From positions 81,559 to 145,558 of the forward strand of contig DASTOM010000024.1 in NCBI GenBank assembly GCA_035762545.1: a DNA stretch of 64,000 nt, read 5' to 3'. The stretch's first letter is position 1. Every line of letters begins with the position of its first letter. Below the pieces are notes generated by a model that was not told where the DNA came from, did not search any database, and saw nothing but the letters and a program-made list of their open reading frames with translations. Shown here in pieces: positions 47,245-60,850 of the stretch. This DNA comes from Acidimicrobiia bacterium (lineage in GTDB: Bacteria > Actinomycetota > Acidimicrobiia > Spongiisociales > ZC4RG35). Both the position numbers and the translations under genes were made by a program.

Positions 47245-48174
47245 ATGGCCACCACCAGACTGATCTCGACATCGCACGGCACCAACCGGGAGGCGTTCTC
47301 CGCCACCGACTGGGCGCTGTTCCTCTCGCTGGCTGCCATCTGGGGGTCGTCGTTCCTGTTCATGGCCATAGGGCTCGATGCATTTCATCCCGGGCTGGTG
47401 ACACTCATACGGGTCGGTCTCGGAGCGTCATTCCTGGCGCTGATACCTCGCACACGGTCTGTCTCGATCGACCGTGAAGACTGGCCCAAGATCGCCTTGC
47501 TCTCGGTGATCTGGGTGGCGTTGCCGTTCACACTGTTCCCGATCGCCCAACAGTGGATCGACTCCGCCATCGCCGGGATGCTGAACGGGGCGACCCCGAT
47601 CTTCACCGCCCTCATCGCTACCGCGCTCCTCCGGAGCCTGCCCGGCCCCCTTCAGATGACCGGCCTACTTCTCGGGTTTGCCGGCATCGTGGCAATCGCC
47701 CTGCCCTCGGCTGGTGGCGATACGACCGCGGCCATCGGGGTCATCCTGATCGTCCTCGCCACCATGGGATACGCGGTTTCGCTCAACATGGTTCCACCGT
47801 TGCAGCAAAAGTACGGGTCACTTCCGGTGACTGCCCGGGTTCTATGGCTGGCCGCCCCGATGGTGATGCCCTATGGGCTGGTGGGACTGGGACAATCCAG
47901 CTTTGCCTGGCCATCCCTGCTGGCGGTGGCGGCCGTCGGCATTCTCGGAACCGGCCTCGCCTTCATCTTCATGGGAAACCTCGCCGGAAGCGTCGGAGCG
48001 ACGAGGGCCTCGTTCCTCTCCTATCTGATCCCGGTGGTCGCCGTGGTGCTCGGTGTGGTTTTTCGGGACGAGATCGTCTCTCCGGTGGCCATCGCCGGAG
48101 TCCTGCTGGTGATCATCGGTGCGATCCTGGCCTCACGCCGTGAGACGAGAGAGATCGACCGACGCCCGGCGTAG
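47245..48174 (+). CDS. DMT superfamily transporter (EamA domain)
   Basis: Duplicated EamA 5-TM halves. Confidence 0.7.
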   Translation: MATTRLISTSHGTNREAFSATDWALFLSLAAIWGSSFLFMAIGLDAFHPGLVTLIRVGLGASFLALIPRTRSVSIDREDWPKIALLSVIWVALPFTLFPIAQQWIDSAIAGMLNGATPIFTALIATALLRSLPGPLQMTGLLLGFAGIVAIALPSAGGDTTAAIGVILIVLATMGYAVSLNMVPPLQQKYGSLPVTARVLWLAAPMVMPYGLVGLGQSSFAWPSLLAVAAVGILGTGLAFIFMGNLAGSVGATRASFLSYLIPVVAVVLGVVFRDEIVSPVAIAGVLLVIIGAILASRRETREIDRRPA

Positions 48175-49056
48175 GGCACGCATCGCCAACTCCTTGTCCC
48201 CGAGCCGGTGTCGCAGTTCCCGTTCGAGGCCACCGATCGGATAGAGGTTCTGTGGCGCCCGCGGGTCCTTGTGCCGGGCTGACGCATAGCGGGGAAGGGT
48301 GGCGCTCACCCGGGAGGCGACTCGCGCCGCGGTGGCGGCGTCGGTGTCGGCGTCGATTTCACAACGCACCAGCCCCCCGGCCGGGCCGGCGTGGTTGGCG
48401 AGCCGCAAGTACCACGAGTACCGGCTCCACGACGTGGTGGTCAGGAACAGCGGCGTCCGATAGCCGGCGGGCAGACCGGTCAGAACCTGGCGCAACTCCA
48501 TGGGGAGGTACTGGACCTTCTGGGTTTTGATGTAGCCGACGGCATTCTCGATGTCGCGGGCATGGCTCAAGGGCCCGTCCACCACCAAGAGCTCAGACTC
48601 CCCCGCCAGGCGGGTCATCTTCGCCTCGAGGTCACCCATGCGCTGCTGTATCCCCAGCCACAGCTCTTCTGGAGTGGTCCCCTTGGTCGCTTTGACCTCG
48701 TATGCGCCGACGCTGGTGGGAACGTCGACAGCAGGCGCAGAGGTGAACAACCCACGTTCCACCTCGGTGTTGGTGATGTGGGCGGTGCCGTTGCACCTGA
48801 CCACGCCAGCGGCGTAGGTGGCTGCCAGCGCAAAACCGGGGAAGTCGGGAGGCTGATCGATCCAGAGCGTCGCATCGACCCGTCGCACCCCGTCGACGAA
48901 CAGGACGTCACCGACCGGCTCGGAATCGGGGAGAAGGGGCCGCCAGTCCTCCGGTTTCAATTCGACCGAGACGTCGACGTTCTCGCTGGCATCCTCCAGG
49001 TCGGCGTCGGTCGGTGCGCCGTAGTCGGAGTCCCAGGCCTCCACGGTGAACTTCAC
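48133..49056 (-). CDS. Uncharacterised protein translationally coupled to sbcC; hypothesised NurA-like / RNase H-fold nuclease
   Basis: Start overlaps the sbcC stop by 4 nt. Two hydrophobic-strand-DG motifs (VLFVDGVRRV and LLVVDGPLSHARD) and several conserved acidic residues. No HD, HNH or P-loop motif. Confidence 0.45.
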   Translation of the reverse strand: MKFTVEAWDSDYGAPTDADLEDASENVDVSVELKPEDWRPLLPDSEPVGDVLFVDGVRRVDATLWIDQPPDFPGFALAATYAAGVVRCNGTAHITNTEVERGLFTSAPAVDVPTSVGAYEVKATKGTTPEELWLGIQQRMGDLEAKMTRLAGESELLVVDGPLSHARDIENAVGYIKTQKVQYLPMELRQVLTGLPAGYRTPLFLTTTSWSRYSWYLRLANHAGPAGGLVRCEIDADTDAATAARVASRVSATLPRYASARHKDPRAPQNLYPIGGLERELRHRLGDKELAMRALRRASVDLSRLTA

Positions 49057-51413
49057 GGAGCCAGCCTCACGGTGGCTCCGGTCGGCTCACGGGTCACCAC
49101 ATATCGCACCGGAGCGCGCGCCGCCAGTTCTTTGACGTGGGTGATGACACCGACCATCAGACCCCGTCCGGTCAGCTCTTCGAGAACCGAGGCGACGGTG
49201 TCGAGCGAATCGTCATCGAGTGTGCCGAATCCCTCGTCGAGGATGATGGCGTCGAGTCCCGACCCGCCCTTGGCTGCCAGCGTCTCCGCCAGAGATAGGG
49301 CCAGAGCCAGGGAGACCAGGAAAGTCTCCCCGCCGGAGAGTGTGGACACCGACCGTTGCTCGTCTGCGTTGCGATGGTCGACGATCGAGAAGTCCCCGGA
49401 GTAGTCGGAGGCGAGCGAATAGCCGCCGTTGGACAGCTGAGACAGCAGGTCGTTGGCCCCCTGCACCAGGTCGACCAGGGCACCGGCCATGAGCCACTGC
49501 TCGAAACCGTTGGAACGAAGGTGTCCCATCAAGGTCGTGGCCACCGCAGCGTCCTTCGTCGCCTCCTCCTTGGTTCGCGCCAGTTCGACAGAGTCAGCCA
49601 CGGCCTTCTCGTGGAGTTCGACCATGGTCCGGGCAACGTGGAGGGCGGAAGCCAGTTGGACCGCGTAGGGCTCGACCGCGGGGATCTCGTGGCTTTCGAG
49701 CAGCGCGGCCAGGCCTTTCTCGGCTCGTTCGGCGGCCATCTCGGCGTTTTCCACTGCCGTCCGGGCAATCTCCAACTGTGGCTCCATATCCTCGAGCCTC
49801 GCCGTGCGCCACCGCAGCAGGTCTTTCCACTGCACGATCACGTCGTCGCTCTCAGACAACTCCGGCTCGAGATCGGCGACTCGCAACTGGGCCTCGGTCA
49901 GCTTCCGACCGATCCGACGGGACTCCTCGGCCAGGTCCTCCAGGGCACGCCGTGCAGCCTTGACTTCTGCTGTCCGGGCTTCGAGTGCCTCCCGGGCCCT
50001 TGACATCTGTGTCTGGAACTCAGAGACCTTCTCCGACAACTGCGCCAGCTCATCAGGACTGGGGACATTCTCGAGGTCGACCATGACCGATTCCCTCTGC
50101 CGACCGACCTCCTCACGGGCCGTCTCGTGACGGGTGAGGACGCTCCTGGCATCGTCGAGTGCCCGCCTTGCCTCGTCCACGGAGACGGCGGCCGCCCGCT
50201 CGGCCTCCTCGAGTGCGTCGAGCTCGGGAAGGGCGGCTTCGCCAGGGAGGCGCTCCACGACCTGAGTGCAGACCGGACAGGCCTCGCCGGCGACGAGGGT
50301 GCCGACGAGGGCGTGGGCGGCGTGCCGCTGACGGGCCGAGTTCAGGTCGTCCCGGATCTGGAGGAGGAGGGCGGTGGATTCGCCGACCCGGGCTTCGGCA
50401 ACCGTGGCGGCCTCGGCAATCTCCGGCTGATCGAGGTCGGCGAGCCGGGCGTCGATCTCGGCGAGGCGAGCGTGGTGCCGGTCCCAGGAAGTCAGCTGGT
50501 CGGGCGAGGGAAGGACTTCCAGGGCTGATTCGATCTGTTCGATCTGTTGCCGGGCCGTTTCCAGCCTCTCCTCAGCGGTCTCGGCCCTTTCACGTGCATC
50601 GGAAGTCAGTGCATCGAGAGCCTCGAGACGGTCCGGTGCTGTGATCGATTGGAGTCGCTCCACCGAGCCGCGCAGGTGAGCTTCGTCGGTCGATGCCTGG
50701 TCGGCGATCCTGCGTAGTTCTGCCAGAGCCTTCTCGAGGTCTCCAAAACCGGCGGAGAGCTCGTCCAGTGTCTCGAGACGCTGGCGAGCCGTTGCGGCCG
50801 TCTCATCGTCGGGGACTTCCAGGGCCGCCAGCGCCCGTTCCGCTGACTCGGCCCGATCCGTCGAGACCGCGGCTCTGGTGCGGGCCAACTCCCGCACGGT
50901 GGTGTACACGTCGAGGCCGAGAAGGCTGCGCAGAAGTCCCTGACGCTCCGCCTTGGTCGCGGTGAGGAAGCGAGCAAAGTCCCCCTGGGGGAGGACCACT
51001 GTCCGGGTGAAGTCATCGAACCTGAGCTTGAGCAGATCCTCGACCGCCGTGCTGACCTGATCCGCCCCGCTGGCGACGACCTCATCGCCCAGGAGGAGAC
51101 GGGCTTCTTTGACGCTGGCCCCACCGGTCGCGGTCCGCTGCGCCAACCGGACCGCCGTGTAACGGTCTTCACCGACGTCGAACTCGAAGGCAACCCGGGC
51201 CCGGTCGGAGCCGGCAGTGATGGCAGGGGCGACTGCGTTGCCCCCTAGCCTGGGAACCCGTCCGTAGAGAGCGAAGATCATGGCGTCGATGAGACTCGAC
51301 TTGCCCGACCCGGTCGGTCCGGTCAGTGAGAAGAAGTCGACATCATCGAAATCGACCTCGACCGGTTTCCGATAGGCGGAGAAGCCCTCGACCCGGATCC
51401 GTGCCGGTCTCAT
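49053..51413 (-). CDS. sbcC: DNA double-strand-break repair ATPase SbcC (Rad50 homologue)
   Basis: Walker A GPTGSGKSS, long coiled coil with zinc-hook CPVC, ABC signature LSGGETFLVSLALALSLAE, Walker B LDEGFGTLD, H-loop GVITHV. Confidence 0.85.
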   Translation of the reverse strand: MRPARIRVEGFSAYRKPVEVDFDDVDFFSLTGPTGSGKSSLIDAMIFALYGRVPRLGGNAVAPAITAGSDRARVAFEFDVGEDRYTAVRLAQRTATGGASVKEARLLLGDEVVASGADQVSTAVEDLLKLRFDDFTRTVVLPQGDFARFLTATKAERQGLLRSLLGLDVYTTVRELARTRAAVSTDRAESAERALAALEVPDDETAATARQRLETLDELSAGFGDLEKALAELRRIADQASTDEAHLRGSVERLQSITAPDRLEALDALTSDARERAETAEERLETARQQIEQIESALEVLPSPDQLTSWDRHHARLAEIDARLADLDQPEIAEAATVAEARVGESTALLLQIRDDLNSARQRHAAHALVGTLVAGEACPVCTQVVERLPGEAALPELDALEEAERAAAVSVDEARRALDDARSVLTRHETAREEVGRQRESVMVDLENVPSPDELAQLSEKVSEFQTQMSRAREALEARTAEVKAARRALEDLAEESRRIGRKLTEAQLRVADLEPELSESDDVIVQWKDLLRWRTARLEDMEPQLEIARTAVENAEMAAERAEKGLAALLESHEIPAVEPYAVQLASALHVARTMVELHEKAVADSVELARTKEEATKDAAVATTLMGHLRSNGFEQWLMAGALVDLVQGANDLLSQLSNGGYSLASDYSGDFSIVDHRNADEQRSVSTLSGGETFLVSLALALSLAETLAAKGGSGLDAIILDEGFGTLDDDSLDTVASVLEELTGRGLMVGVITHVKELAARAPVRYVVTREPTGATVRLAP

Positions 51414-52549
51414 GAGCCGGTCCCCACCGTTTGGGCTTCGTCGAGCAATTCAGCGAAGAGGGCTTCGACCCGCGGGTCGGAGCTGTCCTTTTCGGCGAGG
51501 TACTTGGCGAAAGCCTCGGTCGGGTCGAGCCCTTGCCTCGACTCGGTGGCGGAACGTGGCTGGGTCGGGCTCTCCAATACCACTTCAACGGCATTGGGGA
51601 TCGCCTCACGCACTTCGTCGGCGAGGCCCACCCTGGCGCTCTCCCGGAGGACCACCCGGACATAGGCGTCACCGGTGTCACCGGCACGGGCCAGGACCTG
51701 CTCGAGACTTCCGGTGAGCGACATAAGCCTTCGACCCGAGGTGAGAGGAAGCTCCTGAACCGAAGCGGGCTTGCCCGGTTCGGCGGTGACCAGCAGGGCA
51801 CCCTTCTGATCGTTGACCTCGCCGAAGTCGAGTTGGAGCGGCGAGCCGGAGTACCAGACGGCCGAGGAGTGCGGCATCTTCTGTTGACGATGGAGATGGC
51901 CGAGCGCGACATATGACAGGTGGCCGGGGAAAAGGGCCGCCGGGATGGCGTATCCGAAGATGTGGGCGGTCCGCTCTCCACCCCCTGCCTCGGCGCCGTG
52001 GACGGTGAGATGCCCGGCCAACAGGTTGACGGTGTCAGGGGTCAAGTCTGCGGTGAGCATCTCGATGACCCGACGCATGCGCTCTTCGTACTTGCCGGCG
52101 TGCTGGTCGGGGTCGGAGCCCATGATGTCCTCGACCTTGACGATGGCCCGTTGGGAGACGAACGGGAGCAGGGCGACCTTGGCACCGACGTCGGGAAGGT
52201 CGACGACTCCCCCATCCTCGGGGGACCGGGCCGTCCCCACGACTTTGACGCCTGCCCTGTCCAGCAACGGCGCTACGGCGTCGAGCCGTGCCGGATGGTC
52301 GTGGTTGCCGGCGACGACGAGAACGGGTGACACCTCGGACAGGTCGAGCAGGGTGCGCCACACGATCTCCTCGGCAGCGGGAGTCGGTGAGGCGGTGTCG
52401 AATACATCACCTGCGACCAGGGTCAGGTCGACATCGTGGCTGTCGGCTAGTCCAACCAGCTCGGACAGCACCTCACGATGCTCGTCGGAGCGATCGCGCC
52501 CCCGGATTCGACGGCCGACATGCCAGTCGGAGGTGTGCAAGACCTTCAC
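51410..52549 (-). CDS. sbcD: DNA repair nuclease SbcD (Mre11 homologue)
   Basis: Calcineurin-like phosphoesterase motifs HTSDWHVG, AGDVFD, VVAGNHD, GHLH. GTG start. 4-nt overlap with sbcC. Confidence 0.85.
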   Translation of the reverse strand: MKVLHTSDWHVGRRIRGRDRSDEHREVLSELVGLADSHDVDLTLVAGDVFDTASPTPAAEEIVWRTLLDLSEVSPVLVVAGNHDHPARLDAVAPLLDRAGVKVVGTARSPEDGGVVDLPDVGAKVALLPFVSQRAIVKVEDIMGSDPDQHAGKYEERMRRVIEMLTADLTPDTVNLLAGHLTVHGAEAGGGERTAHIFGYAIPAALFPGHLSYVALGHLHRQQKMPHSSAVWYSGSPLQLDFGEVNDQKGALLVTAEPGKPASVQELPLTSGRRLMSLTGSLEQVLARAGDTGDAYVRVVLRESARVGLADEVREAIPNAVEVVLESPTQPRSATESRQGLDPTEAFAKYLAEKDSSDPRVEALFAELLDEAQTVGTGS

Positions 52550-52620
52550 GTCGAAGATCGTAGGAAGGGGGTGTGACAGATTTGAGGAACGTCAGGCGTC
52601 GGCCTGGAATGAGTTGAGGC

Positions 52621-52995
52621 TCAGTTCCCCTCGAGCGGGGTCTGTTGATGCAAGACGAGTTGCCAGTCGCCATCCTTGGCCTGGTAGACGCTGAGGATGT
52701 GAGCCCGGTATTCCTCGGCATCTTCTGTTCGTTTCCCAGTCGCTTCATAAACGAGGCCTACGACACCATCTTCGATCGGCACGAAGGTGGGATCGCTCAT
52801 CTCGTAGCTGGCCCATGGGTCCGCCTGACCCATGGCATCGACGACGTCTCGTTTGTCGAGCACCCCCATCGAGAGGACGAACCTTCCGCTGTCCGCTACA
52901 TGGGTTTCATAGAAATCCTGGTCGCCCGAGCTCTGCCAGAACGACTCTTCGATTTCGAGGACATCGGCGAACTCCACCGGTACTCCCTCGGTCAT
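52621..52995 (-). CDS. NTF2-like / SnoaL-like (DUF4440-type) protein
   Basis: C-terminal block YQAKDGDWQLVLHQQTP typical of DUF4440/SnoaL_3. Confidence 0.5.
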   Translation of the reverse strand: MTEGVPVEFADVLEIEESFWQSSGDQDFYETHVADSGRFVLSMGVLDKRDVVDAMGQADPWASYEMSDPTFVPIEDGVVGLVYEATGKRTEDAEEYRAHILSVYQAKDGDWQLVLHQQTPLEGN

Positions 52996-53069
52996 TGGCT
53001 GGGATTACCCGTGCGGGAAACTCGACAAACGGTGGTGGATGAGGTATCGATCGGGATGAGTCGGGGCGC

Positions 53070-54195
53070 TCATCCCGGGCTTCGTCGTCGACGAGCCTGT
53101 CCTTCCTCGATGTGGGTGAGCACGTGGTGGAAGCGGCAGAGCAGGACCCCATTCGCCACAGAGGTCTCACCACCGTCCGCCCAATGCTCGACGTGGTGGA
53201 TGTCGGCCCATCGTGCCGGTCTCTCACATCCGTTCCACCTGCAGGTGCGGTCCCGGGCGACGATGGCCCGCCGCTGCGCCACAGTCCACACCCTGGTCTT
53301 CCGGCCAACGTCGAGGACTTCGGAGTCGGGCCCGAACACGATCCGACACACCGACGAGTCGCAAGCGGTCAAACGAACGGCGTCGACAGCGACGATGGAA
53401 CCGGTGTCGAGGGTCTCGTGGGTGCCACCGGCGATGCCTTGCAAGCCGGCGATGTCGGTGAGCAGTTGAATCTGGGGACGTTCCCCGCCGACCTGCACCT
53501 CGTTGTCGTGGGTGAGATGACAGTTCGCCATCTCTTCCAGGGCGTCGTGTCGGCGCTGTCTCATCGACCTCGGATCGTCAGGAGCTGGCGGCGGCAGATG
53601 CGCGGAGAGGGCGGCTTCGAACGCCTCGCCCGCCAGTTGGGTCAGCCAACCATCGACACGTCGCATTCCATTCACGGCCTGGGACAAGGACAGGCCGCGA
53701 CGGACCATCTGTGACTCCAAGTCGAGGTCACCGGGTCCATCGACCGCCTGCCGCCAGTATTCGAGAGCACGGCCGGTCTCACGAACCGTCAACGGTTCCA
53801 CGATGTCGACCAGCTTCTCCTCGGCCTCCCGATAGACGTCAGGAACGGCGTCGGCCGTCTGGAACAGCTGGCTTGCCTGATCGGAGGAGATGCGGCCGTC
53901 CGACCAGGCCCGATAGGCCGCGGGGGCCGAGGCCTGTCCCTTGACTCGGGTCGCAAAACGTTTGGCCCGTCCGGCGCATCCGACCCACCTCCATCAGGTA
54001 CGTCGTGAGGGAGGGGAAACCCAGATCGGTGAGGCCACCCGTCGATTCGAGGACAGCGACCTTCTCGGCAACCAGGACCTTCATCTGGTCGATCCCCCGG
54101 CACAGTTCCCCGATCTCGACATTGAGCTCGTCGGTGGATAGCGATCGGTTGTCGACCGCCTTCAAATCATCGAGCAATGAACGAAGTTCGCTCAT
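53070..54195 (-). pseudogene. Frameshifted DUF222 / HNH endonuclease (REP13E12-like)
   Basis: N-terminal DUF222 segment in ORF 53839..54195 (MSELRSLLDDLKAV...LMEVGRM). The remainder (ATRVKGQ...AYRAWSDGRISSDQASQLF... then the HNH motif CRWNGCERPARWADIHHVEHWADGGETSVANGVLLCRFHH) is in a different frame. The single frame switch occurs near 53975-53995. Confidence 0.55.
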
Positions 54196-54307
54196 CCCAT
54201 TCCCCTCATGTCGAGAACGTACAACCCGCCCCCGACAGAAACTCGAACTATCAACCCCGCCTGAGAATCAACCTACGACCCAGGTGTGACAAGAAAAGGC
54301 GAGGGCA

Positions 54308-54375
54308 AAAACGAGCGCATACGTGCCGTTCTCGTGCGCTGCGCGTAACGCTCGTTATCCGCTCAAGAGTGTTGA
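54308..54375 (+). repeat. 68-bp element, copy 1 (catacgtgccg-N21-gctcgttatccgctcaagagtgttgatctcgggcgg)
   Basis: Direct repeat of 55089..55156 with identical internal spacing (32 nt). Lies in an unusually AT-richer intergenic stretch upstream of the membrane protein gene. Confidence 0.55.
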
Positions 54376-54455
54376 TCTCGGGCGGTAGGCGACCGACCAA
54401 ACAAGGTCAGCGCGTCTGTCAGCAACCAACTCCTTCGGATGCTTACCTGGTCTGA

Positions 54456-55070
54456 ATGCGCAGGGCGGTCGTTGTTGGGCTCGTTTGGGGAGCCTTCTGT
54501 GGGATGGCGAATGGCCTGCCAGGGGCCACGACTGTGGTCCAGATGGCGGTTCCGTGGATCTGGGTTGCGGCATTCGTCTCGTATCGAGGCGCAGACAGCA
54601 GCAGGCTGGCTGCCGTACTGGGTGCCATCGCGTTGTTTGTAGCCAATGTCGCCTACTTTGGAGTTGGGTCATTGGCTCGGAGCATTTCGGGGCTGTCTCC
54701 GGTCGGCGGCATTCGGTTCTTCGCATTGTGGGCGGCCATTGGATTGGTCATTGGGCCAATCGCCGGGGTGGTGGGCTGGTGGCTGACTTCTCAACGACGT
54801 TCATTCACCGCGGTTGTGATGCTGGCAACGGTTTCGGTTGCTGAGCCATTGGCGCTGTGGACCCACATCGACCACCTCGATGCTCACCTTGTGTACATAG
54901 CTGTCGCGGCAGCTGGCTTGGCGTTTCCGCTGGCTTGGTTTCGACGAGACCGGCGCAAGGCGCTCAGAGCTCTGGCTCTGGTTCTGATTCTGACCTATCC
55001 GATCGCAGTGGCGCTAGAAGCCACGTTGATAGCGCTTCGTCAGATCTCTTCTCCGATGAGACTCATCTGA
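54456..55070 (+). CDS. Hypothetical membrane protein (about 6 TM)
   Basis: Hydrophobic segments throughout. Flanked by a 68-bp direct repeat. Confidence 0.45.
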   Translation: MRRAVVVGLVWGAFCGMANGLPGATTVVQMAVPWIWVAAFVSYRGADSSRLAAVLGAIALFVANVAYFGVGSLARSISGLSPVGGIRFFALWAAIGLVIGPIAGVVGWWLTSQRRSFTAVVMLATVSVAEPLALWTHIDHLDAHLVYIAVAAAGLAFPLAWFRRDRRKALRALALVLILTYPIAVALEATLIALRQISSPMRLI

Positions 55071-55088
55071 TACTCGGAGCGCCCGCTC

Positions 55089-55156
55089 CATACGTGCCGA
55101 TACCGGGCACTTTGCGAAGTGCTCGTTATTCGCTCAAGAATGTTGATCTCGGGTGG
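55089..55156 (+). repeat. 68-bp element, copy 2 (catacgtgccg-N21-gctcgttattcgctcaagaatgttgatctcgggtgg)
   Basis: 34/36 identity in the 3' block and 11/11 in the 5' block. Located 18 nt after the stop of the membrane protein gene and about 290 nt upstream of the methyltransferase gene. Confidence 0.55.
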
Positions 55157-55443
55157 GTCGGAGAGATTGCCAAGCGAGCCCGGTCGCTGAGTCAAGCTTT
55201 GTCGCTCGGGCGCTGGAGTGGCGTGACAGCCTTCTTCGCCGTACTCGCCGCCTTCGTCGTCAGCTACCTCGTCTGCGTCGAGGTCGCCAAGTACTTCTTC
55301 TACAAGATCCATACCCCAATCACGGCCCAGCCTCTACAACGCGACCACGTCCACCGACTCGCCGCCCGCTGGAGCCATCCCCAGCCGCTGCAGCTCCAAG
55401 AATCCAGCCCTAACGCACGCCAACACCGGGTACGCTTCCGCCG

Positions 55444-56214
55444 GTGAGCTTCATCGTTGGGGCAGATGCGTACGACAGATTCATGGGCCGCTATTCGATG
55501 CATCTGGCACCCCAGCTTGCCGATCTGGCAGGGGTCGATGCCGGTCAGGAAGCCCTCGATGTCGGATGCGGCCCCGGCGCACTGACAGGCGAACTGGTCG
55601 GGCGTCTCGGACCATCCGCCGTAGCAGCAGTCGATCCTTCAGAATCCTTTGTAGCCGCGGCACATGAGCGGTACCCCGAAGTCGATGTGAGACGCGCTGC
55701 GGCCGAAGAGCTCCCATTCGCCGATCAGACCTTCGACGCCACCCTGGCTCAACTCGTAGTCCACTTCATGACAGACCCGGTTCGGGGCCTTGGCGAGATG
55801 GGCCGGGTGACACGCAAGGATGGTGTGGTGGCGGCGTGTGTTTGGGACCATGCCGGCGGTCAAGGGCCACTCAAGGTTTTCTGGGACGCGGCGCGCTCGC
55901 TTGATCCTGATGTCGATGATGAGTCGTGGCGTGCCGGCACTAGCGAGGGCCATCTAGCGCAGTTGTTCCAAGAGGCCGGGTTGCGCCAAGTCGAGCAGTC
56001 GGTTCTCGAAGTTGGCGTCGACCATTCGAGCTTTGAGGAGTGGTGGGAGCCGTTCACTCTCGGCGTGGGCCCTGCAGGCGCCTACACCGCCGGCCTCGAA
56101 CCGCGACGAGCATCGGAGTTGCGTGAACGTGCCCTCGAAATGTTGCCGACGGCCCCGTTCACGGTGACAGCACGGGCCTGGGCAGCGCGCGGGGTGGTGC
56201 AGCCTGTCAGCTGA
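55444..56214 (+). CDS. Class I SAM-dependent methyltransferase
   Basis: SAM-binding motif LDVGCGPGALT and acidic post-I motif. Confidence 0.8.
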   Translation: MSFIVGADAYDRFMGRYSMHLAPQLADLAGVDAGQEALDVGCGPGALTGELVGRLGPSAVAAVDPSESFVAAAHERYPEVDVRRAAAEELPFADQTFDATLAQLVVHFMTDPVRGLGEMGRVTRKDGVVAACVWDHAGGQGPLKVFWDAARSLDPDVDDESWRAGTSEGHLAQLFQEAGLRQVEQSVLEVGVDHSSFEEWWEPFTLGVGPAGAYTAGLEPRRASELRERALEMLPTAPFTVTARAWAARGVVQPVS

Positions 56215-56691
56215 TCGGAAGAGCTCAGCCGGCCGCTTGTAGCGGGCCGAGCACCCGGATCGTCTCGATCTCGTCGACGACCTCCACGCGCCACTCGTTG
56301 CCCAGGAACACCCAGCTGGAGAAGTGATCGACCTCGGCCAACTCTTCGGCAGTCTTGCCGTATACCCCACTCATCTCCATGAATGTGTCAAAGCAGTCCT
56401 GGGTGCCCGGATAGAGGAGGTAACACAGATGCAGGGACACGTTGGACCGTGACTCGTGCCGGGTCCCGACCCTGGCACACGTACACGACGCGATCCTCCA
56501 GAACGCGATCTCCTAGCTTGGCTTTGGTGAGCTGCAGTATCACGGTGTGGATGACCGGCAACAGAGTCGACCCAGACCAGATCCAGCTGGTCCGAATCGC
56601 CACCATCACTACCCCAGAAGGGGCGCATAACGCGCGGCCCTTATCACGAAATCGACGAAATCACCCGCGCGCTATCCGGCAATCTGCGCTA

Positions 56692-57184
56692 TCACTCAGC
56701 ACCCTGACGCCGCCGAATCAACTCCTCAACTGGCGTCGGCAGGGTCTCCTCGAAATCGATCAGCTTGGCCCACGTCGGCTTGACCACCATCCGCACCATC
56801 GAGTCATAGAGGGATCGCACACCAGCCTCCCACTCCACCCGCTGCCCGGGCGTCATCTCATAGGTCCCGCTCATTTGGAAGTACTCGTCAGGGATCCCAT
56901 CGGACTTCATCGAGTTCTGCATCACCACGGAGCAGGAGGATCTTCGGCGGATGGCTCTCCGTGTCGATCGTCAACGCCACCGCTGCGTTGCGTCGCAGCG
57001 AGGCAAGCTTCGGAGCGTTGGTCGGGGTGCACATGACGATTCCCGTGCCGTTCCAGAAGATCCCGATCGGCACGACTCTGGGGGTGCGATCCGACGCCAC
57101 ATAGGCCAGACGAGCGATGTCCCGGTTCAGCATCTCCTGACTGAGCGGTTTCGCCAGCATCTCGGCTACCTCGTCACGTCCCAC
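56692..57184 (-). pseudogene. Frameshifted PPOX-class (probable F420/FMN-dependent split-barrel) oxidoreductase
   Basis: The N-terminal half (ORF 56888..57184, RLAYVASDRTPRVVPIGIFWNG...AVALTID) and the C-terminal half (ORF 56692..56928) are in different frames and overlap by about 40 nt. Together they give the usual length of about 160 aa. Confidence 0.45.
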
Positions 57185-57211
57185 GGTGTCCTCCCACCCG
57201 GCTTGGTGGCG

Positions 57212-58879
57212 CTACAAATCCTCGAAGGGGTCCTCCGGGCCGTCGTAGTCGGTGGGACGAACCGCCTCGGAGGCACGGGTTGCCCAGGCGGGGAAGGGGA
57301 ACTCGAGCACCAGAGGAACCGGTAGCTCGGGCTGGCTGAGGATCATCGTCCCCGGTTTCACGATCGTCGCTCGCTGACGGTGGGGACCGGGGAGGAATCC
57401 GTACTCCTCACGTGACGCCTCGGCGGAATCGAGACGTCCCACCACCCGGATCGAGCTGTTGGCGATGATGCGACGCTCCACCTCGGATGCAGTCTGCTGG
57501 GCTCCGATCAGGATGACACCCAATGACCTGCCCCGTTCGGCGATGTCCAACAGGATCTCTTTGATCGGGCTCGAGCCTTCCCGGGGGGCGTACTTGTTGA
57601 GTTCGTCGAGGACCACCATCATCAATTCGTCCGCCTGACCGGCACGCTCCTTGTCCTCGAATGCCCGCTTCAGGGTCACACCCACCACGAATCGCTTGGC
57701 CCGATCGTTGAGGTTGTGCAGGTCGACCACCGTCACTTGGTGGTGCAACCCGATTCGGTGTCGTTCCGGGTCGGCGACATCGGCCCGGATCAGCCGACCC
57801 AGGTGGCGTACAGACGCTTGCAGACGACGGACGAATGCGTTGACGGTCCCGATCCCGATCGCCGGCCCGGCCCACTGGTACCGGTGCTCTTCGCTCTGCA
57901 CCCGCTCGGTGATGAGGTCGGCCAACTCACGGAACGTCCGCACCCTGACGCCGTCGATCACGGCCGCACCGGTCTCAGTCAGATCGGCCTGGCGCAGTTG
58001 CGCCATCACGTTGTAGACGACGGTGGTGTATTGGGCCCGGTCGTCCTCGGCGTCGGCGAACAGGAACGGAAGGAGATCGTCGACGCAGAACTCGTGGATG
58101 CTCCAGAAGAACGACGTCACGTCCGACCGGGAGGCGACATCGGCCGTTGCCCTGGGATCGTCGATGCGAGGCGGGGCGAACAACCCGACCGAGTCGAAAG
58201 GGTTGCTGGGAAGCCCAAGGTCGGCGTAACGGGAACGCTGCTCCTCGTCGAGGCGGTTGTTGACCCGGTCGAGATGCAGAAGGTCTTCGCCCTTGACGTT
58301 GAACACCAACGCTTTGGTGTTGACAGCGGCGGGGCCCAACACTCCCGAGGTGAAAAGAGAGTGGAGCAGGAAGGTTGCGTAGCTGGTCTTGGTTGCCACA
58401 CCGGAGATGCCGGAGATGTTGATGTGCGCCCCTCGCTCACCGTTGATGAACTCGAGGTTGACCCACAGCGGCTCACCGTTGCGTGCCAGACCCACCGGCA
58501 GCTTGCGTTCCATGCGGTCGAAGAACAGCGCCCGGTCGCGTTCTTCGCCCTGGGCCACCCGCACCTCCTGTCCTGGTCTTGGCGGGACGAAGACCTCGGG
58601 CTCGAAACGGGTGGCGGTGACCTGGGCGGCCTCGGTGACCTCGGCGGGGAGGATGCCTTCCTCGATGAGGAACACATCAGAGTCGAAACGAGCTCCCTCG
58701 TGCCGGGCAACTACCTGTCCCACGGTGCCGTACATGCGCACCACCTCGCCGGTGGGCAGCACCCGCTCCAGTGCGACGACGTCGTCGAGCTGCAGGTACT
58801 CGCCTTCGCCGACACCCACCCAGAACTCGAGTGGCGTGGCGTCCCTGGTTCCCAGGACTCTCCCGACCGAATCAGCCAT
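57212..58879 (-). CDS. HerA-like ATPase (FtsK/HerA superfamily, DUF87-type)
   Basis: N-terminal HAS-barrel-like segment MADSVGRVLGTRDATPLEFWVGVGEGEYLQLDDVVALE. Deviant P-loop INISGISGVATKTS. Walker B MMVVLDELNKY. FtsK/HerA-type C-terminal block LGVILIGAQQTASEV...SIRVVGRL. The ORF-track extension 58880..59359 is rejected. Confidence 0.65.
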   Translation of the reverse strand: MADSVGRVLGTRDATPLEFWVGVGEGEYLQLDDVVALERVLPTGEVVRMYGTVGQVVARHEGARFDSDVFLIEEGILPAEVTEAAQVTATRFEPEVFVPPRPGQEVRVAQGEERDRALFFDRMERKLPVGLARNGEPLWVNLEFINGERGAHINISGISGVATKTSYATFLLHSLFTSGVLGPAAVNTKALVFNVKGEDLLHLDRVNNRLDEEQRSRYADLGLPSNPFDSVGLFAPPRIDDPRATADVASRSDVTSFFWSIHEFCVDDLLPFLFADAEDDRAQYTTVVYNVMAQLRQADLTETGAAVIDGVRVRTFRELADLITERVQSEEHRYQWAGPAIGIGTVNAFVRRLQASVRHLGRLIRADVADPERHRIGLHHQVTVVDLHNLNDRAKRFVVGVTLKRAFEDKERAGQADELMMVVLDELNKYAPREGSSPIKEILLDIAERGRSLGVILIGAQQTASEVERRIIANSSIRVVGRLDSAEASREEYGFLPGPHRQRATIVKPGTMILSQPELPVPLVLEFPFPAWATRASEAVRPTDYDGPEDPFEDL

Positions 58880-58915
58880 CTCCCGCGAGCGTAGATACCG
58901 GGGGCGACAGATCCG

Positions 58916-60016
58916 GTGAGCCTCGTCGTGTTCCCTTTCAAGGAGGAGGACGTCTCCGTGGTGGCCGCCAATTTGAAGACCGCCGCCGCACACGACCGGG
59001 TCGACGAGGTGTGGGCCGTTGCCGCGGCTGAGGGGGCGGCGATGGCTGACGTCGACGAAGCCGCGACTGAGGTGGCGACGGCGATTGGCACTCCGGTGTC
59101 GGTGTTCCCTCAGGAGCGGATCGGGATCTACCGATCCGGCAAGGGCGACGGGATGAACACTGCGATTGCCTTGGCAGCAGAGCGAGGCTTCGACCGGACT
59201 CACTTCTACGACGCAGACATCACCAACTTCGACACGACGTGGATCGACGGAGCGGAACATGCAGCAGACAGGGGCTATGGCGTGGTCCGTCACCGCTTTC
59301 CCCGGGCGGCGACCGACGCCATGATCACCTGGATGGTGACCCGACCCGGACTGGCACACCGATTCCCCGGAACCCTGCTCCCCCGGCTCGGACAGCCGCT
59401 CGGAGGCGAGATCCTCCTCAATCGGGACGCCGTCGAGGCGCTAGCGGGCAAGAAGAGCGTGCGCCAGCGTTCGGATTGGGGCATCGACACAGTGATCACC
59501 CACGCCACGGCGCTACTCGACCTCGGTATCTACGAGCACAACGCGCCCGACGGGAAGCGCCACGCTCTCTATGGCTCGCTCACCGATATACGGGACATGG
59601 TCCTCGAGTGCCTCGACGCCGTGGCCCGACTCGAAGGAGCACCGGACCCGGCGGTCGGCTTCGATTCCGACCCGCCCTCCGAGGTTCCGGCCGACCTCAA
59701 GGAGACAGTGGCGTACGACGTATCGGCGACGCGACGATCGATCGACCAGCCGATCTCGGAGGAAGAACGCGCCATCTTCCACTCCCTGGGACTCGATCCC
59801 AGCGGCCCGATCGTGGTCGATGACCGTTTGTGGAAGCGGCTCCTCCCCCAGCTCCTGGTCAGGTTCGACCTCACCGACCACGCTTGGCGTGGTGTCGTCT
59901 TTCGGCTCTGGGTCGAACGGGTGATCCATTACACGACACATCAGGTTCCACTGGGATACGACGCTGCGATGGTGTACCTCGAAGAGACGGTGCAGGCGTT
60001 CGAGCACCCGGGATGA
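58916..60016 (+). CDS. Glycosyltransferase resembling glucosyl-3-phosphoglycerate synthase (GT81 family)
   Basis: Alignable by eye to the mycobacterial GpgS layout: N-terminal VVFPFKEEDVSVV, GKGDGMNTAIALAAERG, then FYDADITNFDT, and a C-terminal region with R.PLL..L....GGE.LL.R. Confidence 0.45.
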   Translation: MSLVVFPFKEEDVSVVAANLKTAAAHDRVDEVWAVAAAEGAAMADVDEAATEVATAIGTPVSVFPQERIGIYRSGKGDGMNTAIALAAERGFDRTHFYDADITNFDTTWIDGAEHAADRGYGVVRHRFPRAATDAMITWMVTRPGLAHRFPGTLLPRLGQPLGGEILLNRDAVEALAGKKSVRQRSDWGIDTVITHATALLDLGIYEHNAPDGKRHALYGSLTDIRDMVLECLDAVARLEGAPDPAVGFDSDPPSEVPADLKETVAYDVSATRRSIDQPISEEERAIFHSLGLDPSGPIVVDDRLWKRLLPQLLVRFDLTDHAWRGVVFRLWVERVIHYTTHQVPLGYDAAMVYLEETVQAFEHPG

Positions 60017-60019
60017 GTC

Positions 60020-60850
60020 CTAGCCCGCGGCGATGACCGCCAGAGCCGCGAGCGTGAGCACGAGACCCAGGATCTGACGTCCCCGCAAGTGCTCTGCGTT
60101 GACGATACGGGCCATCAGGACCGTCACCGCCGGATAGAACGAGGCCGCCACCGCAACCGGAGCCAGCGAGCCCAGTCGCAGGGCGAGCAGAAGGGTGACG
60201 TTCCCGGAGACGTCGAGCAACCCGTTGCCGAGGATGATCGCCTTGGGAATCGATGAGAACCCGCTGACCCGCCACACGCCGAGGAGAGCGATCAATGAGA
60301 TGGCCAGCATGGTGGCGGCGCGGGCCGGGATCAGCGGGAGCAGCGCCGACGCCTCGGAGGTTTGGTCGAGGAGAACGGTGTACACGCCGAATCCGAGCCC
60401 GGCCGCCAGGCCGTACCAGACACCTCCCAACGGAACGTCGCCCGGTTCTCCCACCCAAGAACAGAGCACGATGGCCGGGATGGCCACAACGACCCCCACC
60501 CAGGTCAACGTGGAGATCGGATCACCTGTCAGCACGGCGACACCGACTGGCACGATCCCACCGAAGGCCGCCGCCGCTGGCGCTACCGCCGCCGCCTGGC
60601 CGCGGCCGAGGCCGGCGAACAGCGACACCAACCCCAAGGCCCCGGCCGATCCGCCCGCCGCTCCCAGCCAGAGGTCGGACGGTTGTGCATCGCCGCCGGT
60701 CAGCAGTGCCACTATCAAGATCAGCGGGAACGAGACGAGCCCGGCCCACAGCACGACCGTGGCCGCGGAGACCCGTTTGGCGCCCTCGCCACCCAAGAAG
60801 TCACCCACTCCGTAGAGGAGCGAGCTCAGCCCGCCGAGTAGGACTCCCAA
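60020..60850 (-). CDS. DMT/EamA-like membrane transporter
   Basis: 10-TM Gly/Ala-rich hydrophobic protein with duplicated halves. Confidence 0.55.
   Translation of the reverse strand: MGVLLGGLSSLLYGVGDFLGGEGAKRVSAATVVLWAGLVSFPLILIVALLTGGDAQPSDLWLGAAGGSAGALGLVSLFAGLGRGQAAAVAPAAAAFGGIVPVGVAVLTGDPISTLTWVGVVVAIPAIVLCSWVGEPGDVPLGGVWYGLAAGLGFGVYTVLLDQTSEASALLPLIPARAATMLAISLIALLGVWRVSGFSSIPKAIILGNGLLDVSGNVTLLLALRLGSLAPVAVAASFYPAVTVLMARIVNAEHLRGRQILGLVLTLAALAVIAAG

Follow-up and report, generated by a model that had tools for sequence, protein, structure and literature searches.

The window analysed here, a 64,000-nucleotide stretch of an Acidimicrobiia bacterium genome (NCBI GenBank assembly GCA_035762545.1, contig DASTOM010000024.1, positions 81,559 to 145,558 of the forward strand; position 1 is its first letter), carries a minus-strand gene, herA (57212..58879), with an unusual ATP-binding loop. 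By sequence comparison and structural modelling, the product of this gene, 555 residues long, is very probably an ortholog of the HerA type that pairs with NurA in bacteria and was first characterised in Deinococcus radiodurans (drHerA, DR_0837). Structures of drHerA have been solved in apo form (PDB 7WRW), with ADP (7WRX) and together with NurA (7F6D; Yang et al. 2023, PMC9960219). An earlier note on this DNA had flagged the gene as a HerA-like ATPase with a deviant Walker A motif, and had proposed a divergent, possibly regulatory or altered-specificity enzyme. The non-canonical loop is, judged from the sequences of its homologs, a signature of a whole clade and not a lesion or specialisation of this gene. 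The gene is an ordinary further HerA of an already studied kind, and the observation that drew attention to it is real but routine.

Results

We compared the protein with the PDB sequences using phmmer, for which the best match was drHerA (7f6d_B, E 1.4e-145, residues 2-538) at 54% identity across 533 aligned residues. A profile built from A2, an alignment of 24 sequences with homologs down to 30% identity, gave E 8.8e-207 in the comparison with drHerA. The same alignment was the input for an AlphaFold2 model with a predicted local distance difference test score (pLDDT) of 90.3 and a predicted template modelling score (pTM) of 0.88. In Foldseek, the model matched 7wrw_B with a query template modelling score (TMq) of 0.92 and a root-mean-square deviation of 2.5 A, covering the HAS barrel, the RecA-like core and the inserted helix bundle. 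The corresponding TM scores were 0.61 for the archaeal HerA 9x1m, 0.60-0.61 for 4d2i and 0.54-0.63 for HerAs of defence systems. The assignment to the HerA family of ATPases made in the earlier note is borne out by the drHerA match and by the fold. Sequence and fold identity are directly supported here, as are residue conservation, the gene start and the neighbourhood. Among 8000 candidates scored, 7108 were homologs at E <= 1e-5, and a 50%-identity library yielded 1874 cluster representatives at E <= 1e-3. The 555-aa sequence itself had no exact entry in the contig index. The nearest homologs are 85-93% identical and come from Acidimicrobiia metagenome-assembled genomes; the public names of homologs are "ATP-binding protein" or "DNA helicase HerA-like ATPase".

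The stretch GISGVATKTS (residues 157-166; 58382..58411, minus strand) is read as the P-loop because it aligns with drHerA K175/T176 and takes the strand-loop-helix position in the model, in which residues 157-162 join a strand (152-156) to a helix (163-177). The loop, NISGISGVATKTSYA, is identical in drHerA. An alignment of the P-loop column places K164 (58388-58390) on K175 and T165 (58385-58387) on T176, in agreement with the earlier identification of this segment. In drHerA the loop is termed simply the Walker-A motif and lies between beta1 and alpha1, K175 forming an ion pair with the beta-phosphate of ADP and T176 coordinating Mg2+ (PMC9960219).

The loop is non-canonical, as had been noted, and fails GxxxxGK[ST]. 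In G157-I-S-G160-V-A-T163-K164-T165 the residue ahead of the lysine (K-1) is Thr163 and not Gly, and the PROSITE-type pattern [AG]-x4-G-K-[ST] is not matched. A canonical Walker A pattern anywhere in the protein is found in only 1 of 120 listed close homologs and in 3 of 150 diverse representatives. The motif G-x-[SA]-G-[VI]-A-[TSA]-K-[TS], on the other hand, is present in all 120 listed close homologs and in 106 of the 150 representatives, which were taken at 50% identity; most of the rest are fragmentary or frameshifted gene calls. Thr stands ahead of the P-loop Lys in 219 of 226 motif-bearing homologs, and G160, A162 and K164 are invariant in A2. Because the motif recurs in close and diverse homologs alike, we read the deviation as a signature of the clade, and the suggestion that it sets this gene apart as a divergent, regulatory or altered-specificity ATPase does not hold, given the same loop in these relatives and in drHerA. 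We take the loop to be the normal, working Walker A of the clade. In drHerA, the one member studied, it is compatible with nucleotide binding and hydrolysis; mutations of K175 and of D487/E488 impaired both ATPase activity and resection (earlier work cited in PMC9960219).

A clade-wide form of the same suggestion is that a P-loop lengthened and lacking its Gly changes how all of these proteins handle nucleotide or metal, making them slow, partner-gated, Mn2+-preferring or largely regulatory ATPases. The Thr at K-1 and the failed canonical pattern fit this idea, as does a one-residue gap in the canonical loop in a profile alignment with the defence HerA 8xau (GSTG-SGKS), a stretch that is not significant alone. 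Moreover, the Mg2+-ATPase of drHerA is reportedly 10-100-fold below that of Sulfolobus HerA and is enhanced by Mn2+, and drHerA residues 220-260 partly block the ATP site. However, ATP hydrolysis by drHerA is stimulated by DNA and NurA, mutating K175 or Walker B deprives it of both ATPase activity and resection, ADP occupies its loop in the usual way, and no experiment ties the loop sequence to kinetic differences. The gene in the window is also indistinguishable from about 7000 homologs and has no divergence of its own. On this evidence we consider the clade-wide form improbable.

Other functional residues of drHerA are likewise in place. K196-G-E-D199, at the end of strand beta2 (58283..58294, minus strand), corresponds to drHerA K217 and D220, with K196 invariant and D199 nearly invariant in A2 and E198 beside D199; in drHerA, K217 is assigned to the gamma-phosphate and D220 is labelled the catalytic 'glutamate' (PMC9960219). 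Walker B, VVLDE (residues 422-426; 57602..57616, minus strand), contains D425/E426, equivalent to drHerA D487/E488 and invariant in A2. The Walker B block VVLDELNKYAPREG is, like the P-loop, identical to drHerA, in which a Walker-B mutant was reported to be ATPase-dead. R451 (57527..57529, minus strand) is invariant in A2 and equivalent to drHerA R513, and would be the trans-acting arginine finger by the role given in PMC9960219. Pore residues map to drHerA over 57410..57583 (minus strand), a span that includes a GAQQ block at 57494-57505. Here, R433 (57581-57583, minus strand) equals drHerA R495 and R490, in a TR motif (57410-57412, minus strand), equals R552; the drHerA mutants R495A and R552A abolish 5' end resection (PMC9960219). 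The set of conserved catalytic and DNA-contact residues of drHerA thus comprises K175, T176, K217, D220, D487, E488, R495, R513 and R552. The earlier statement that Walker B and the sensor block are intact agrees with the conservation of D425/E426 and R451 and with GAQQ read at 57505..57494.

The six-frame list of open reading frames (ORFs) gives a 715-aa minus-strand ORF at 57212..59359 with a GTG start. The earlier note held that this start was over-called, and we come to the same conclusion: the true herA start is ATG 58879, which is in frame, opens MADSVGRVLG and leaves 555 aa plus stop, and the first 160 codons (58880..59359) are noncoding on the minus strand and antisense to a divergent glycosyltransferase gene. 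Each of the 120 listed homologs covers 75-79% of the 715-aa query; exactly 555 aa is the length of 60 of them and the longest has 577 aa. Their N-termini consist of Met, 0-4 variable residues and a conserved VGRVLGTR, and in the few homologs with longer start calls the extra N-terminal residues are unconserved. The extension is, as previously described, rich in Cys, His and Arg (5.0, 8.8 and 13.8%, versus 0.2, 2.2 and 9.4% in the core). Its guanine-cytosine (GC) content at codon positions 1/2/3 is 0.79/0.51/0.68 in the herA frame, compared with 0.70/0.43/0.81 in the herA core, and its codon statistics are noncoding.

The divergent gene (58916..60016, plus strand) encodes a mannosylglycerate-synthase (MGS)-like glycosyltransferase with Pfam MGS_GT (297 bits, from residue 2) and MGS_C. 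Its first 444 nt lie beneath the false herA extension, and in its frame the extension DNA has GC1/2/3 values of 0.67/0.49/0.80. Because the extension is coding-like on the plus strand and the MGS_GT match begins at residue 2, it is the antisense of a real coding sequence and more than a promoter region. The earlier description of the extension as overlapping the divergent promoter of a GT81-like gene is therefore right about an overlap, whereas most of the overlapped DNA is coding sequence and the gene is of the MGS type. The gene does not pass the GpgS (GT81) model of NCBIfam (17.7 bits; cutoff 262).

Translation of the whole 715-aa ORF, which would produce a HerA with a Cys/His-rich N-terminal domain, has in its favour a reading frame that is open from GTG 59359 and four more in-frame start codons ahead of 58879, although none of them falls between 58993 and 58879. 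Against it, the codon-position GC is noncoding in the herA frame and coding on the opposite strand, the region is already occupied by the MGS-like gene, and none of the 120 listed homologs exceeds 577 aa. Long antisense ORFs are also expected at 65% GC, as a general property of high-GC genomes. Hence, we give the 715-aa form almost no probability and regard its translation as effectively excluded.

Only 36 bp lie between ATG 58879 of herA and GTG 58916, at which the glycosyltransferase gene begins; the distance in relatives is 36-59 bp, and the same divergent MGS neighbour is found in the relatives at loci L001-L015. Because the divergent starts are this close, either both promoters reach into the adjoining coding sequence or the mRNAs lack leaders. 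A sigma-70 promoter scan of 56500-59400 returned 0 sites, and the three terminator-like matches in that scan lie inside genes and do not exceed the chance expectation. As a side observation, the MGS-type gene hints at compatible-solute synthesis in this Acidimicrobiia lineage.

Farther along the minus strand, the window encodes sbcD, sbcC and nurA. The sbcD gene (51410..52549, minus strand), an Mre11 homolog of 379 aa, matches TIGR00619 sbcd with 175 bits against a cutoff of 77.65 and carries Pfam Metallophos and SbcD_C. It is followed, with a 4-nt overlap, by sbcC (49053..51413, minus strand), a Rad50 homolog of 786 aa with Pfam AAA_23, SMC_N and SbcC_Walker_B, whose best NCBIfam match, TIGR00618 sbcc at 239 bits, is under its cutoff. 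Another 4-nt overlap leads to nurA (48133..49056, minus strand; 307 aa), which encodes the predicted nuclease partner of HerA and scores 23.4 bits with Pfam NurA (gathering score 21), E 1.6e-17 with drNurA (7f6d_H) and E 4.8e-7 with Thermotoga TM1739. The catalytic drNurA residues D53/K201/R309 correspond to D55/K177/R266, given an assumed +20 offset of the PDB chain numbering. The minus-strand order in the window is thus herA, a 4.6 kb insert, sbcD, sbcC and nurA, with about 8 kb from herA to nurA. About 60 nt upstream of the sbcD GTG at 52549 (52550-52610, minus sense) are conserved with relatives and read TTCCnCnAATCTGTCACA...CCTACGATCT; a TACGAT box ending 7 nt ahead of this GTG suggests an sbcD-specific promoter and a leaderless mRNA.

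The same gene order recurs well beyond this genome. A relative with an 87% identical HerA has the divergent MGS gene, herA, a Metallophos gene, an SMC-like gene and a 307-aa gene. In all, 581 loci were confirmed by tblastn. A scan with one genome per species gave 80 loci, and we counted the order in the 58 that had >= 6.5 kb of downstream sequence. In 55 of these 58, herA, sbcD, sbcC and nurA follow each other in order on one strand, and the carriers include Acidimicrobiia, Nitriliruptorales, Micromonospora, Gammaproteobacteria, Acidobacteriota, Dehalococcoidia, Saprospiraceae, Gemmatimonadota and Longimicrobiales. Of 77 loci, 65 have a herA-sbcD gap of <= 300 nt and 10 a gap of >1 kb; the 4662 nt in the window are the largest gap seen. 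Across Acidimicrobiia, synteny with MGS, GSDH, HIT, gpsA and ychF genes is conserved as well.

HerA proteins also occur in anti-phage defence systems, and a role of that kind (similar to Sir2-HerA or DUF4297-HerA), instead of one in chromosomal double-strand-break repair, was considered for this gene. PADLOC gave weak, partial matches of the HerA protein to mad8 (E 3.8e-9) and to HerA models, SbcC matches the mad3 and LmuB SMC-head models, and the herA-sbcD junction collects accessory genes in several relatives. However, the PADLOC matches cover residues ~375-523 only, and the defence reading was rejected on account of their partial, C-terminal extent. NurA and SbcD have no PADLOC match, and neither Sir2, DUF4297 nor another known effector is adjacent, the neighbours being MGS, PNPOx-like, SbcD, SbcC and NurA. 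The fold resembles defence HerAs far less (TM 0.54-0.63) than drHerA (0.92), the synteny across Acidimicrobiia is conserved and the four-gene order is kept across phyla. The shared features are the HerA/FtsK-superfamily fold, Walker B and a similar C-terminal RecA core (Sir2-HerA/Nezha 8SUB and 8J4U; DUF4297-HerA 8ZIQ and 9C1M), but identity to these proteins is 12-15%, their P-loop is canonical (GSTG-SGKS, 8xau) and their partner proteins are not present here. A defence function therefore appears very unlikely.

In this genome, a block of about 4.6 kb (52600..57200) has been inserted between herA and sbcD, and the junction looks like a place where insertions recur. Similarity to relatives breaks off ~10 nt past the herA stop and returns ~60 nt ahead of the sbcD start, and the GC content falls to ~0.60 in parts of the block. 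It holds a DUF4440 gene, a split DUF222/HNH gene, a DUF6518 gene, an S-adenosylmethionine (SAM) methyltransferase gene and a frameshifted PNPOx-like gene. We rejected the possibility that the insert is unique to this genome, given that other loci carry insertions at the same herA-sbcD junction: at L007 (HerA 90% identical) a DUF222 gene start lies ~2.2 kb downstream of herA, and insertions >1 kb are found at L005, L006, L016, L018, L021, L033, L049, L063, L064 and L071. The cargo differs among loci, with a histidine kinase and a globin at L005. Neither direct nor inverted repeats of the sort expected at the boundary of a mobile element were found on the flanks of the insert, and Rfam gave no match at E <= 0.1 in 52000-60200.

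Several features of the block are reported in their own right. A frameshift seems to interrupt the PNPOx-like gene (56692-57184, minus strand), which begins 27 nt downstream of the herA stop codon: a 98-aa ORF ends ...GDAELDEVRWDP at a stop codon and the next frame resumes ...DGIPDEYFQ..., a break consistent with one extra base near 56900-56905 and hence with a pseudogene or an assembly error. The DUF222/HNH endonuclease gene (53070-54195, minus strand) is split into a 118-aa N-terminal ORF (53839..54195) and a 243-aa piece (53070..53801) with the C-terminal part of DUF222 and HNH, and is likely a disrupted selfish-element gene. A 68-nt direct repeat with 81% identity (54318-54385 and 55089-55156, plus strand) brackets the DUF6518 gene (54456..55070); it has two copies only in the window, where none are expected by chance, and is without an Rfam match.

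Discussion

The identification of the protein as an ortholog of drHerA rests on the three-domain fold, the P-loop, the Walker B block, the arginine finger and both pore arginines, all of which it shares with drHerA, and a bacterial-type NurA homolog is encoded in the same region. A number of observations weigh against this identification or against the function that it implies. The HerA protein has no Pfam-A match at E <= 0.01, and the matches at E <= 10 are at chance level (fragments of TerD and CobA, dismissed as meaningless); none of the 120 listed homologs has an entry in the precomputed Pfam column. NCBIfam gave no relevant match, the serine-rich model reaching 20.8 bits against a cutoff of 650. 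The protein is ~60 residues shorter than drHerA, mainly through deletions in the helix-bundle insertion, and certain drHerA residues are not conserved. R154, through which the neighbouring subunit is proposed to contact the gamma-phosphate, is replaced by E143; the position is outside the conserved columns of A2, and because of this we do not take R154 to be family-defining. R96 is Q86, and the drHerA mutant R96A is without phenotype (PMC9960219). In the NurA-docking triad D78/E80/D81 the first residue is kept (D68) and the other two differ (F70 and L71); further acidic residues near the docking site are D66, E73 and E74, and according to the authors of the drHerA paper the docking positions align poorly outside Deinococcus. 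At the level of the locus, herA is physically apart from sbcD-sbcC-nurA and sbcD has an apparent upstream element of its own, which means that co-expression is not assured. Lastly, nurA and herA deletions in D. radiodurans and Thermus have only modest or even positive effects on damage resistance.

From the homology with drHerA we infer the oligomeric state, ATPase activity, translocation, NurA binding and cooperation with SbcCD, as follows. HerA would form a hexameric ring that threads double-stranded DNA. ATP would be bound at the subunit interfaces by Walker B D425/E426 and by the P-loop, in which K164 would contact the beta-phosphate and T165 the metal. K196 and D199 would serve the side of the gamma-phosphate, and the adjacent subunit would supply R451 in trans. 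Two arginines, R433 and R490, would reach into the pore and grip both DNA strands, and hydrolysis at the interfaces would drive translocation. The HAS-barrel face would dock a NurA dimer, into which the broken DNA end would be fed, and NurA would cut the 5' strand during pumping, leaving a 3' tail for RecA. Initial end processing could be carried out by SbcCD, the Mre11-Rad50 homolog, as has been proposed for the archaeal operon.

The arrangement of the genes differs from that in Deinococcus and Thermus. In Deinococcus, nurA adjoins herA. In Thermus, nurA precedes hepA and is adjacent to it (PMC5448004), whereas in the window nurA closes the run sbcD-sbcC-nurA that lies downstream of herA. A close parallel in gene content is the archaeal herA-mre11-rad50-nurA operon of Sulfolobus, Pyrococcus and Thermococcus, with the same four functions, the same gene order and, as proposed, the same division of labour in end resection. 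Archaeal HerA (4D2I, 9X1M) belongs to the same fold class (TM ~0.6), but identity in the structural alignment is only 13-14%. The archaeal proteins presumably carry the shorter GxxGxGK[ST] loop. In the window, moreover, the nuclease and ATPase are bacterial SbcD and SbcC by NCBIfam and not Mre11 and Rad50, and the NurA, a bacterial-type one, most resembles drNurA and TM1739.

Among bacteria, the hepA-sbcD-sbcC arrangement of Oceanithermus profundus has been read as an archaeal-like architecture (Blesa et al. 2017, PMC5448004). There, SbcD and SbcC homologs lie directly downstream of the bacterial HerA homolog; in the window they also lie downstream, but the cluster is interrupted by 4.6 kb. 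In contrast to that account of one genus, we find herA-sbcD-sbcC-nurA in 55 of 58 loci and in many phyla. NurA and HerA homologs in Actinobacteria and other bacterial phyla have been mentioned in a review. The structure of the Deinococcus complex and its mechanism are already known, and the placement of SbcD/SbcC downstream of a HerA homolog was found in the literature only for Oceanithermus. How widely the four genes occur together, and the repeated insertions between herA and sbcD, may be under-described; both are side results and not properties of the feature first flagged.

As a single gene, this HerA is of limited weight, being a routine ortholog whose "deviant" motif has already been crystallised with ADP. 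It does, however, expose a gap in annotation: a HerA clade with solved member structures is invisible to Pfam-A and NCBIfam, and scans for Walker A motifs keep flagging its members. A family model would be the remedy.

A bolder reading is that the P-loop G-x-S-G-V-A-T-K-T, one residue longer and Gly-less, is a clade-wide adaptation that turns bacterial NurA-associated HerA into a slow, Mn2+-favouring and partner-gated motor, which would work with SbcCD in a widespread four-gene herA-sbcD-sbcC-nurA resection machine. We hold this to be possible, if on the doubtful side. If true, the archaeal operon would have a bacterial equivalent, which to date has been remarked on only in passing, for Oceanithermus. 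The occurrence of the herA-sbcD-sbcC-nurA order across many phyla suggests that bacterial NurA-HerA normally works with SbcCD. The in vivo role of NurA-HerA has been disputed on the basis of knockouts in Deinococcus and Thermus, where the genes are unlinked, and the linkage described here points to better models, such as Micromonospora.

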